A DNA stretch of 31,188 nt from a virus (IMGVR_UViG_2690316121_000008:1-31188); one strand, 5' to 3'. Counted from the first letter of the stretch, positions 4,399 to 8,424 are shown. Numbers and translations: made by a program. Notes: generated by a model not told the origin, from the letters alone.

Positions 4399-4761
4399 TT
4401 AATGACCTGCTGCGCGGAGTTTTCCGTCAGGTTCACCGGCAAGAGTCAGTAATTGTCCCTGGTCTTCCTGCAGAATAGTCAGACGACCACCGCGATTGAC
4501 ATACATCGGCGTTTCGGTGGTGTCTTCTTCGGAAATTTTCCCGCGGTTAGTCGGGCGAACATATGAGAGTTTGTGTTTGATTTTCACACGGCTCTCATCA
4601 AATGGTTCGATTTCCAGGTTGAGTGAGACCTTACCTTTGGTTTTCGTGTTCATCACACCGGAAGCGACTTCACTGAGAACTGCGCCGATTTTGGTTTCAA
4701 ATACGCCGCCGTCCAGCTCCCCGATAAATGCCTGCACATCAGTACTGCGTTCGCTAGCCAT
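4399..4761 (-). CDS. YfdP-like small protein, function unknown
   Basis: 120 aa from ATG at 4761 (MASERSTDVQ...) preceded by GAGGAG; the annotated ORF continues upstream to 4995 without a stop, but that extension lies in a GC-rich structured leader and is probably not coding. Confidence 0.55.
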   Translation of the reverse strand: MASERSTDVQAFIGELDGGVFETKIGAVLSEVASGVMNTKTKGKVSLNLEIEPFDESRVKIKHKLSYVRPTNRGKISEEDTTETPMYVNRGGRLTILQEDQGQLLTLAGEPDGKLRAAGH

Positions 4762-4810
4762 TTTGCTGCTCCTCATCATATCGACCCTGCAAGGTCGGTT
4801 GGTTTCTCCA

Positions 4811-4897
4811 CAAAACAGAGAAGAACACCTGCGGTGACAGCCGCCCGGATGGATTGGGTTATGAGCCCGTCGTCCGGTGATGATCTTCTCTGTTTTG
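4811..4897 (-). promoter_or_regulatory. 14-bp perfect inverted repeat (CAAAACAGAGAAGA / TCTTCTCTGTTTTG) with 59-nt spacer in the 5' leader of the yfdP-like operon
   Basis: Arms at 4811-4824 and 4884-4897 read directly from the sequence; lies ~50 nt upstream of the yfdP-like start in an unusually GC-rich non-coding stretch. Confidence 0.5.
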
Positions 4898-5625
4898 TAA
4901 AAAGAGCGGTACCAGCCGGAAGCAAGTGTACAAACTGGTACCGCCAAAGCAGTGGCTGTTGTGGTGACCGGTGCTGATCTCCGGCTTGCGGTCATTTCAG
5001 ACTCTCACGGGCGTTTAATTGCCCCGCCGAACAGCTCTTTTCCGCAATAGCTGCAATGTCTTTCGCGCATCAGCCTGCGCATTCACCACAACGCTGAGAG
5101 CACTTAGCCAGTTACGGCACCACACTTTGTCGCGGTTCCATAAATGCCCTCATCGTTGCACCCTGGTCTCTTCCCAGGCGTCAAACCGAATCGCCACGCT
5201 GGTTAGGCGTCTTATCAGCATCCTCATTGACTTGCACATTCCGGCTACCTGGTTTGTTTGCCCGAGCAAGGAGTGGATTGTCCCCTTTAACGTCCCCAGA
5301 CCGCTAACGACGCATGTGCCATACGCCGTGTTACAATAAAATATTCGGTATTAGTTACCAAAGAGACGATTACTCTTATGGTTGAATGTAATACCCCTGT
5401 TGAATATTTTCTTGCGTACTATTTGTTTTTCCTATATAACGAATTGGTTGTTTTATTTACATAATAAGAAGTTTTCTTGAATAAGTTTACATTGTTTTGT
5501 CTTGCTATTTTTCAAAATTCAAGAACAATGAATTGTCGCTATCGGTAATTATTCTTTATGAAATTTTATAAATAACTCCCTGCTTTTGAGTTTTGTACGC
5601 AGTGTTTTTAGTTGTCGAGGACATA

Positions 5626-5835
5626 ATGGATAATCAAAATACTCCTGTTTTTGATGTATGTGGTTGGTACTGTGTGCCAGTTAAAGATCATAATTCAGTT
5701 ATAGTTCAACTGTCCTGCAAACAACCACCATTTGAATCTGATAAAATTATCGAAAGTCCAATATATTCTTTTCCCATAAAAGAAATACCAAATCTCATAA
5801 ATACATTACAAAACATTTATGAAGAAAATAATTGA
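5626..5835 (+). CDS. Small AT-rich hypothetical protein (69 aa, four Cys); stand-alone moron
   Basis: ATG preceded by GAGGA at 5 nt; AT-rich upstream region; intrinsic terminator immediately downstream; opposite orientation to both neighbouring operons. Confidence 0.5.
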   Translation: MDNQNTPVFDVCGWYCVPVKDHNSVIVQLSCKQPPFESDKIIESPIYSFPIKEIPNLINTLQNIYEENN

Positions 5836-5859
5836 TTATAAATCCAGTTCAAAAGTGAA

Positions 5860-5881
5860 GCGTCCATTTGGGCGCTTTTTT
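5860..5881 (+). terminator. Rho-independent terminator downstream of the small moron
   Basis: GCGTCC-ATTT-GGGCGC hairpin (one G-U pair) followed by TTTTTT. Confidence 0.55.
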
Positions 5882-5995
5882 ATTTACGAATCATTCCGGT
5901 CTTCGTATGCCCCGGACGGCTACTTCGTGGGCGTCCTGCCTGTTCGATATCTTATATAGGTACATTATGTATCTCAATGGTACATTGTCAAGTAT

Positions 5996-6017
5996 AAAAA
6001 AACCTGCCGAAGCAGGT
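5996..6017 (-). terminator. Rho-independent terminator downstream of the repressor gene (minus strand)
   Basis: ACCTGC-CGAA-GCAGGT hairpin with a run of 7 A on the plus strand (U-run on the minus-strand transcript), 14 nt past the repressor stop. Confidence 0.55.
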
Positions 6018-6030
6018 TCATAGACATTGA

Positions 6031-6705
6031 TCAGGCTTTAATTTTGTATCTTCTTGGTTTTCCTGAGAAAATAACTGTACCAATGATAGAGCAATTACCG
6101 TTTATCTTAATGTAAGGCTCAGGCCAGTTGGGGTTTAATGCTTTGAGATAACGCTGTGTCCCGTCTTCTATCAACCTTTTGAAGGTGGTTTCACCTGTAT
6201 CGTGCATCAATGCAATAACGTCATCGCCGTGGCAGGCTGGTACTTCTGGATCGACAAAAATCATGTCTCCCGGACGGTACTCATCAATCATTGAATCACC
6301 AATCACCCTCAATATATAAGTCATTTCGCCACAGGGTACAGGGCAGGGATACGTTTCTGTTGTGCTCAAATCAACCTCAGAATAGCCAACTTCTTTCCAT
6401 GCTCCGGCCTGTACCCATGATATGACAGGGACTAACGTTATTTGTTTATTAGTGATTGAAACATCAGGTTTTTTTGTGATGTTCGTTGTCTGGTGTTCTT
6501 GATCAAGCCATCCGACAGGCAGGTCGAAACATTTTTCGATGTGCCGTGCCATGCTGTCACCGATATTTTTAGTAGCGCCATCCCCCATAAACCTGCTGGT
6601 CTGGGTAGGCTCGCGATCAATCATGGTGGCAAAGGATGAATTTCCGCCAACACCATCTCTCAGTTTTCTGGCGTTAGACCGCCGGATGTCATGGATTGTT
6701 TTCAT
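6031..6705 (-). CDS. CI-type prophage repressor with C-terminal S24 (LexA-like) autopeptidase domain
   Basis: 224 aa; C-terminal domain aligns by eye with P22 C2 / lambda CI (ISWVQAGAW, GDSM catalytic Ser region, VDPEV, TFKRL, LNPNWP, INGNC); divergent from a Cro-like gene. Confidence 0.9.
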   Translation of the reverse strand: MKTIHDIRRSNARKLRDGVGGNSSFATMIDREPTQTSRFMGDGATKNIGDSMARHIEKCFDLPVGWLDQEHQTTNITKKPDVSITNKQITLVPVISWVQAGAWKEVGYSEVDLSTTETYPCPVPCGEMTYILRVIGDSMIDEYRPGDMIFVDPEVPACHGDDVIALMHDTGETTFKRLIEDGTQRYLKALNPNWPEPYIKINGNCSIIGTVIFSGKPRRYKIKA

Positions 6706-6740: not shown

Positions 6741-6795
6741 GTATCTTGAAGGTTCATCTCGATCATGTAACATGTATACTGGAGGTACATGCTGT

Positions 6796-6996
6796 ATGAA
6801 AGCGTATTGGGACTCTTTAACCAAAGAACAGCAGGGCGAGTTGGCCGGAAAAGTTGGCTCAACACCTGGCTACTTACGGCTGGTTTTCAATGGTTATAAA
6901 AAAGCCAGTTTTGTGCTGGCTAAAAAACTTGAGCAATGCACGTCAGGTGCAATTACGAAATCTGACTTAAGACCGGATATCTATCCGAAAGATTAA
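6796..6996 (+). CDS. Cro-like HTH regulator (YdaS-like)
   Basis: 66 aa from ATG 6796; HTH segment and C-terminal LRPDI motif resemble the Rac prophage YdaS family as recalled; divergent from the repressor across the operator. Confidence 0.65.
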   Translation: MKAYWDSLTKEQQGELAGKVGSTPGYLRLVFNGYKKASFVLAKKLEQCTSGAITKSDLRPDIYPKD

Positions 6997-7591: not shown

Positions 7592-8424
7592 ACAGTTTAA
7601 CGGCAAATAACCGTTTGTCGCAACAGCTGGAGGTCAGCGTCGCTGAACACCTGTTGTTACGGCATGAATGCAGATTACCAAATCACCTGGCTGTAAGTAA
7701 CCACAGAGAACTTTACCTGACTGTGGGGGGCGAGTTGTGCAGGAACTTAACCGCTGGTTTCGTGACGGAAGAGGGCGTTATGTCCATGTTATTCGTTGGG
7801 AGCCAGAAACACAGCGCGTTATCTATCTTCGCAAAGACTACACGCATGAGTGCTTTAGTCCTTTGTGGAAATTCAGGCGTGATTTTGTTGAGTGTGAAGG
7901 ACCACCAGCACATTGATTCTGCCATTCCGGGACGTTACACTGTTCAGGCACCTTATAAAGCGGGTGCCGGGATTGGCGTCTTGGAAATGTTATCGGCGAT
8001 ATATGACGCGCCAGCGTCTTTTTTATCGTCTGCGTCTGTGCACACCCAAATTATGGTGGGCTGGACGGGGGCACCGAAAGGTGCGCCGGTTTCCGATAAC
8101 GCCGGTTACGCCAACCCCGTTCAGTTCACCACCAGCGAAATTGGCGTTTCCGGTGGTGAAGGTAATTCACTGTTATCGGAGGCTGCCATCATGGCTACTG
8201 TCCCAGCCCTCTCTCGTCTGAATGATGAAGACTTACATAAACTCAGTTATGTAACAACTGCACTACGTGCTCTGCGCAAGGTAACTCTTTCGGATCCGCA
8301 GGCGCATCAGGTTCTGGTAGAAACCCTTCTTAACTTGCAGGCTGAACGTATCCGTTTGGCGGATAAGGCTAATCTTCATATTCACCGTCTCCTGAATATC
8401 AGCGGAGGGCATCGTCATGCTTAA
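7588..8424 (+). CDS. Hypothetical early-right operon protein (278 aa)
   Basis: ATG overlapping the upstream stop (ATGA), typical translational coupling; no recognisable motifs by eye. Confidence 0.55.
   Translation: MNSLTANNRLSQQLEVSVAEHLLLRHECRLPNHLAVSNHRELYLTVGGELCRNLTAGFVTEEGVMSMLFVGSQKHSALSIFAKTTRMSALVLCGNSGVILLSVKDHQHIDSAIPGRYTVQAPYKAGAGIGVLEMLSAIYDAPASFLSSASVHTQIMVGWTGAPKGAPVSDNAGYANPVQFTTSEIGVSGGEGNSLLSEAAIMATVPALSRLNDEDLHKLSYVTTALRALRKVTLSDPQAHQVLVETLLNLQAERIRLADKANLHIHRLLNISGGHRHA

Follow-up and report, generated by a model that had tools for sequence, protein, structure and literature searches.

We propose that the small gene at 5626-5835 of the DNA studied here is part of a self-contained moron lodged in a slot beside a prophage repressor gene, and that its product, a BssS-like protein, modulates host biofilm formation and signalling in lysogens; we give this reading a probability of about 0.55. 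The window, by which we mean the whole stretch of 31,188 nucleotides that was analysed, is a lambdoid E. coli prophage of the e14/CPS-53 type, in which the open reading frame (ORF) lies between the leftward early genes and the leftward repressor gene. As judged from profile comparisons, the ORF adds a new, divergent protein to the established BssS family, and the element that carries it is of a known kind; what is modestly novel is the pattern to which it belongs, namely BssS-like genes in phage immunity regions. The BssS link gives a testable function, control of biofilm and signalling by a prophage, to a 'hypothetical protein' whose gene is found in 30 complete E. coli genomes and on IncF-type plasmids of Salmonella and E. 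coli.

Organisation of the locus

The features referred to below are, in window coordinates:

4399-4761, - strand: yfdP-like gene, first annotated gene of the early-left operon (annotation of L001 mapped onto the window; PHROG 204)
5346-5933, no strand assigned: presence/absence cassette (moron plus shared 3' segment), from comparison with the empty alleles L013 and L016
5346-5625, + strand: AT-rich 5' region, presumed promoter and 5' UTR (28.7% G+C)
5617-5621, + strand: Shine-Dalgarno GAGGA, read from the sequence, 4 nt before the ATG
5626-5835, + strand: 69-aa ORF (69 codons plus stop), from translation; WP_021559686.1, annotated 'hypothetical protein'
5857-5888, + strand: intrinsic terminator of the moron (terminator scan), a 9-bp G+C-rich stem at 5857-5878 followed by TTTTTTATTT
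5958-5972, no strand assigned: operator-like site AGGTACATTATGTAT, overlapping the -10 of pL
5964-5991, - strand: candidate early-left promoter pL, TTGACA-16-CATAAT, 11/12 (scan), convergent with the moron
6000-6019, - strand: terminator of the repressor gene ymfK (terminator scan)
6031-6705, - strand: cI-like LexA/S24 repressor of the ymfK type (Pfam Peptidase_S24, E 1.3e-26; PHROG 4, transcriptional repressor; ymfK in related genomes)

The translation of the ORF is MDNQNTPVFDVCGWYCVPVKDHNSVIVQLSCKQPPFESDKIIESPIYSFPIKEIPNLINTLQNIYEENN; it starts with MDNQNTPVFDVCGWYC, continues with SCKQ and ends in EENN. The initial annotation, made from the sequence alone, had described a 69-aa ORF with CGWYC and SCKQ motifs, a strong Shine-Dalgarno, very AT-rich DNA before it, a clean intrinsic terminator behind it and neighbours of opposite orientation, and each of these elements was recovered here. 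The Shine-Dalgarno is kept as GGAGG in the more distant homologues that we call lineage B, with which the last ~140 nt of the leader (from about 5484) can also be aligned. The G+C content is 28.7% in the 285 nt before the ORF (5341-5625) and 29.0% in the ORF, against 50.0% in the window, and the yfdP-like gene and ymfK are both leftward. As RNA of the + strand, the hairpin at 5857-5878 has a folding energy of -13.3 kcal/mol (z = -3.0) and is followed by a U-run, whereas its - strand reading reaches -7.7 kcal/mol and has no U-run, so that the moron terminator is orientation-specific. The same hairpin (GCGTCC-n4-GGGCGC plus T-run) also ends the other cargo alleles described below and recurs in lineage B, where it stands ~110 nt after the stop codon, ~85 nt further than in the window type. 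Rfam scans of the locus at gathering and E-value thresholds returned only a sub-threshold Phe_leader match; this is simply the terminator, and we rejected the reading of an RNA element.

The promoter region that had been attributed to the gene fared less well. A sigma-70 consensus scan upstream of the ORF found no + strand site at 9/12 or better, and the four sites at 8/12 are at chance level (4.1 +/- 2.2 in shuffled sequence). A rightward promoter is nonetheless inferred as a candidate, the only ground being that nothing upstream is transcribed rightward.

Codon-level comparisons show that the ORF is a genuine coding gene under purifying selection. Indeed, between lineage B and the window type (lineage A), dN/dS is 0.10-0.19 at a dS of ~0.9-1.2, and within lineage A (16 sequences) 4.8% of the ORF columns vary versus 17.5% upstream, eight of the ten variable ORF sites being third codon positions. 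The first 49 nt of the cassette (5346-5394) are invariant in the 16 lineage-A copies, and the ~105 nt of 5395-5500, with ~34 variable columns, form the most variable part of the locus.

On the left side of the ORF, the leftward genes are yfdP, yfdQ (DUF2303) and yfdR, and a 585-nt leader without annotated gene separates the yfdP-like gene from the cassette; on the right, beyond the repressor gene, come the Cro-like ymfT and the CII-like ymfL. We read the segment 5964-5991 as a candidate operator-controlled early-left promoter, pL. Besides the operator-like site on its -10, a second half-match, GGTACATTGTCAAG, overlaps its -35, and a 15-mer of the same type recurs at 6783-6797, between ymfK and ymfT, that is, in the repressor/cro intergenic region. 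The pL segment is kept in the viral contigs L035 and L046, which are ~73% identical in the region, and in these diverged relatives the operator-like 15-mer is a perfect palindrome, GGTACATTATGTACC. If 5964-5991 is indeed pL, the ORF lies inside the pL transcription unit, before the first annotated early-left gene and convergent with pL, a point absent from the initial annotation.

Some observations concern the leader itself. Between the cassette and yfdP, 4996-5345 is a stretch of ~55% G+C without annotated gene and without any match in Rfam, and it is 98% conserved in prophage L013, whose slot is empty; P1-like phage-plasmids of ~90 kb match this neighbourhood in part (~4957-5105 and 5165-5344), at 82-95%, some of these matches being annotated as tRNA-Ile. 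The 198-aa ORF called mechanically over yfdP (4399-4995, - strand) is probably over-extended, because yfdP has 120 aa in relatives; in strain Sx181-0-1, which is identical to the window, yfdP is annotated as frameshifted.

A variable cargo slot and two lineages

Of 5426 complete E. coli genomes, 30 have the small gene, whereas more than 3000 E. coli genomes have the flanks of the cassette. The yfdP-to-ymfK interval is without the cassette in strains A14 and S1-CAM-02-A, and in such empty alleles (L013, L016) position 5345 of the window is joined to 5934 via ~16 unrelated bp. The AT-rich gene with its terminator, which had been delimited at 5341-5881, was thus confirmed as such, but its bounds were not, since the comparison with the empty alleles gives the wider cassette 5346-5933. 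Two other alleles, L014 and L015, have the same flanks and another rightward cargo; they share the window sequence only from 5847 rightwards and therefore end at the same terminator hairpin, which in these alleles shows loop changes and a compensated stem. The alternative cargo, in the slot corresponding to window 5346-5846 (L014:2031-2465 and L015:2023-2535), consists of an ECs1072-family protein and of a 170-aa protein with a weak, sub-threshold match to LprI (lysozyme inhibitor). The locus documents a variable cargo slot in the presumed pL leader of a common E. coli prophage family.

Neither target-site duplication nor terminal repeats were found at the cassette ends, and an insertion of the transposon or IS type was rejected on this basis. 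The sequence comparisons fit a moron that is swapped by recombination in the conserved flanks, not by transposition: the cassette is present or absent in collinear prophages, it deviates in G+C content (29% vs 50%), it has its own terminator and its gene is under purifying selection. Together with the low frequency in E. coli genomes and the empty and alternative-cargo alleles, this upholds the earlier proposal of an independently acquired moron. The morons of lambdoid phages, lambda rexAB and P22 sieB, are similarly optional cargo beside the repressor gene, with presumed expression in the lysogen, deviating base composition and a terminator of their own. However, rexAB is co-transcribed with cI, whereas the window cassette is convergent with cI and pL and would lie inside the pL leader; moreover, unlike for the classical exclusion morons, we found nothing that points to phage exclusion.

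Relatives of the ORF are only a handful among 5.8 and 1.8 billion proteins, a scan of species-representative genomes gave none, and deposited phage genomes contain nothing that matches the ORF itself, in DNA or in protein. The search for homologues and their neighbourhoods found the gene conserved in two lineages, A and B, so that the lack of conservation considered in the initial annotation was not observed. Lineage A, with 94-100% DNA identity, comprises the copies in the 30 complete E. coli genomes, together with those of 10 prophage contigs of IMG/VR, and occurs also on Salmonella and E. coli IncF-type plasmids. We rejected the plasmid copies as independent insertions: what L009 (Salmonella IncFIB-IncFIC) and L010 (E. 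coli p1054c) contain is a 1.2-kb fragment of this very prophage region, corresponding to window 4752-5973. The fragment is ringed by IS elements and lies beside the pertussis-like toxin genes artA/artB and a holin pseudogene, and the Salmonella plasmids that carry it are typed conjugative.

Lineage B (WP_124353614.1, WP_130549488.1) is 70-77% identical to the window type in amino acids and is found on E. coli chromosomes and plasmids, always downstream of a two-partner-secretion adhesin cluster (two-partner-secretion adhesin / HMW1C-like glycosyltransferase / DUF2919 / LuxR/GerE-type regulator). This paralogue has the length, the Shine-Dalgarno and the terminator hairpin of the window type, and its leader can be aligned over ~140 nt, but it has no phage context and follows the LuxR/GerE-type regulator gene. 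Its tie to the adhesin cluster and to a LuxR-type regulator fits a surface or biofilm role.

Relationship to the BssS family

The window ORF has no match in Pfam, NCBIfam, PHROGs or PADLOC, and against Pfam BssS (PF13991, gathering threshold 27 bits) neither the ORF nor lineage B gives any match even at E <= 10. The connection is made by phage-borne intermediates. A phmmer search with the ORF found one distant relative, P0006 (85 aa, 35% identical), at E 9e-5 over 1.8e9 proteins, and hhalign of the family profile (A1) against P0006 gave a probability of 97.7% and E 1.8e-12. P0006 itself scores 31.6 bits on Pfam BssS, above the threshold of 27, and a tblastn search with it led to Salmonella phage F1055 gp37 (WAQ79492.1), 83 aa long, which reaches 61.9 bits on PF13991. 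When the A1 profile was compared with A5, an alignment of F1055 gp37, P0006 and seven BssS proteins, hhalign returned, over 61 columns, a probability of 95.7% and E 1e-8. With enterobacterial BssS as the sole target the comparison is not significant (E 0.13), and the BssS link therefore rests on the two intermediates; a one-to-one HMM comparison with enterobacterial BssS gave P ~7.5e-5, a value that holds for a single comparison. In the multiple alignment, the first strand region forms a graded series from the window protein (PVFDVCGWYCVPVKDHNSVIVQL) through P0006 (PVFAVSGWTIIPICEHDAIVFKF) and F1055 (PVFPVTGWQAGPLPGYDALVVKF) to BssS (THPLVGWDISTVDSYDALMLRL), although identity to chromosomal BssS is 12-14%. 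This profile evidence indicates that the ORF encodes a distant, C-terminally shorter relative of the BssS family.

Structure predictions are consistent with this assignment. The AF2 model of the window ORF (moderate pLDDT, 71.6) has strands at 11-18, 24-32, 41-43 and 47-50 and a helix at 51-68, and that of BssS (moderate pLDDT, 68.0) has strands at 13-21, 26-34 and 45-53 and a helix at 54-72; in these two moderate-confidence models, compared by their secondary-structure elements, the predicted topology (beta-beta-beta-alpha) is the same in order and in register with the shared GW motif. The window protein is thus predicted to be a small cytoplasmic protein made of a beta-hairpin, one or more further strands and a C-terminal amphipathic helix. 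Foldseek searches with the AF2 model against the PDB and BFVD returned nothing significant, and sequence searches of the PDB found no solved BssS relative.

Like the window protein, BssS (YceP, PF13991) is small and soluble, with G-W at the start of strand 1 and predicted strands followed by a C-terminal helix. There are also differences. BssS is an 84-aa biofilm regulator of the Enterobacteriaceae with a short tail ending in H, whereas the 69-aa window protein lacks this ~15-residue C-terminal tail, has HN(S/A)V in place of the YDAL motif and possesses three lineage-specific cysteines; furthermore, BssS is a core chromosomal gene, while the window gene is prophage-borne in DNA of 29% G+C. Only within lineages A and B are the cysteines C12, C16 and C31 kept without exception. 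At these positions P0006 has S, I and F, and F1055 gp37 and BssS also have no cysteine there; the cysteines are therefore a lineage-specific feature and not a family motif, and a Cys-dependent motif, whether zinc or disulfide, was rejected.

BssS-family genes recur beside the repressor of temperate phages with different immunity types, a pattern that we did not find described in the literature searched. In contig L017 the gene for P0006 is rightward, and to its right come a leftward cI-like gene and then a rightward cro; in phage F1055 the BssS-family gene stands between leftward recombination genes and a leftward S24 repressor gene. A scan of IMG/VR yielded 39 contigs with F1055-type genes; in 32 of these 39, which are not independent samples, the ~0.9 kb downstream contain a cI-like ORF of opposite orientation, behind which a rightward cro-like ORF usually comes, and the 32 contigs span several immunity types, the ymfK type of the window included. 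F1055 gp37 and its relatives in the 39 contigs resemble the window gene in being on the opposite strand to a cI-like repressor gene, just past its 3' end, and in having their own terminator, and some of the contigs have the repressor type and the pL/oL segment of the window. Indeed, in L035 and L046 the place of the 69-aa gene is taken by a canonical BssS gene that encodes 83 aa and has a terminator of its own. The F1055-type proteins differ in being 83 aa long and clear Pfam BssS members, and they share ~35% identity with the window protein, in an alignment of only 37 residues. Outside this group, Pseudomonas phage PseuP_224 has a BssS-family gene between a cro-like gene and cI, directly upstream of cI and on the cI strand, and in Synechococcus phage Ssp-JY37 such a gene lies ~0.7 kb from cro.

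All the phage-borne BssS-family genes examined are annotated 'hypothetical protein', and the F1055-type gene is absent from complete E. coli genomes. No report of a phage-borne BssS came up in literature searches that combined BssS with prophage, moron or lysogen; one apparent match was rejected, as it concerns the enzyme Nb.BssSI. The recurrent position next to the repressor suggests that regulation of the BssS type matters during lysogeny, and the phage genes are natural variants for working out the molecular role of BssS. The F1055 slot also contains, between the BssS-like gene and the repressor, a gene for a 61-aa protein with a ClpX-type C4 zinc finger (L028:4328-4513, - strand) and, just before the BssS-like gene, an unannotated rightward gene of 190 aa (L028:3419-3991, + strand).

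Possible role in lysogens and alternative readings

How could the cassette work? In a lysogen, the repressor would hold pL off, and a weak or regulated promoter in the AT-rich leader could then drive rightward transcription of the cassette, as far as its own terminator. This promoter is probably subject to H-NS, whose control is likely for DNA as AT-rich as the cassette. The protein would act on the host like chromosomal BssS, altering biofilm, motility and indole/AI-2-related physiology, or, alternatively, it could interfere with host BssS. Upon induction, transcription from pL would pass the hairpin and run antisense through the moron, the terminator presumably being inactive on the - strand, and moron expression should be shut off by transcriptional interference. 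The phenotypes described for chromosomal bssS concern biofilm, motility and indole/AI-2 signalling (PMC3646849). By analogy with these, we infer that the likely role of the window protein is to modulate the biofilm and signalling physiology of the host in lysogens; to say that it works like BssS is a statement at the level of phenotype.

A much broader proposal, which we regard as doubtful, is that BssS-like proteins form a widespread and so far unrecognised lysogeny-associated class in the immunity regions of Enterobacteriaceae and Pseudomonas phages, where they would reprogramme host biofilm, motility or signalling. They might do so by means of a small dimerising beta-alpha fold that pairs with host BssS or mimics it, or by binding nucleic acids as PC4 and Pur-alpha do; the 69-aa form would then count as a truncated variant that is possibly dominant-negative. 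Should this hold, the phage proteins would open an approach to how BssS works at the molecular level.

Other functions have to be weighed against a BssS-like modulation of host physiology. The protein could be a prophage-encoded inhibitor of a host or phage target, acting in superinfection exclusion, anti-phage defence or anti-defence. In lambdoid phages, the slot beside cI is the one that houses exclusion or defence genes expressed in the lysogen (rexAB in lambda, sieB in P22); here the slot is hypervariable and holds several unrelated cargoes, Dsr1 or a dCTP deaminase is found at another place of the element in related prophages, and the protein is small and acidic. Nevertheless, we consider an inhibitor unlikely: homology points to a family of host-physiology regulators, lineage B sits in an adhesin island that is not phage, and neither PADLOC nor PHROGs contains a match (the PADLOC-DB defence HMMs match none of the ORF, P0006, BssS and the alternative cargo proteins). 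The initial annotation had remarked that small proteins of this sort are frequently inhibitors of host or phage targets; the analysis did not bear out a Cys-dependent inhibitor, the cysteines varying across the wider family, PADLOC, PHROGs and Pfam giving no match and the only homology found being that to BssS.

It is decidedly improbable that the gene serves as an accessory regulator of the phage lysis-lysogeny switch (through the activity of the repressor, Cro or pL, or through repressor cleavage) instead of acting on host physiology. BssS-family genes do adjoin the repressor gene across several immunity types, and that of PseuP_224 lies between cro and cI, co-oriented with cI. However, the gene is missing altogether from prophages that have this repressor, these operators and these early genes; it is therefore dispensable for the switch, and its homologues include the chromosomal bssS of all enterics and the copy in an adhesin island without phage context. 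A non-coding function, with the AT-rich DNA (for example as an H-NS nucleation site or a roadblock downstream of pL) or an RNA as the functional unit in place of the ORF, would suit a cassette that is extremely AT-rich and placed, convergent, in the pL leader; but the strong purifying selection at the codon level, the conserved Shine-Dalgarno, the fact that the upstream non-coding part is the least conserved segment and the absence of an Rfam match make it very hard to believe.

Other genes of these prophages deserve mention. In related prophages with the small gene, anti-phage genes lie ~4 kb to its left, beyond yfdR, a Dsr1 sirtuin in one and a dCTP deaminase in the other (L001:1-2133, L002:1-1580). 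In the window itself, gathering-level Rfam matches to the Hfq-binding sRNA isrK (7948-8024, + strand, 59 bits) and to the C4 antisense RNA (8049-8136, + strand, 83 bits) stand side by side, in or after a region that is annotated in relatives as a Rha-family or DUF4222 gene, and a cluster of four tRNA genes lies inside the prophage at 13247-13553 (+ strand).
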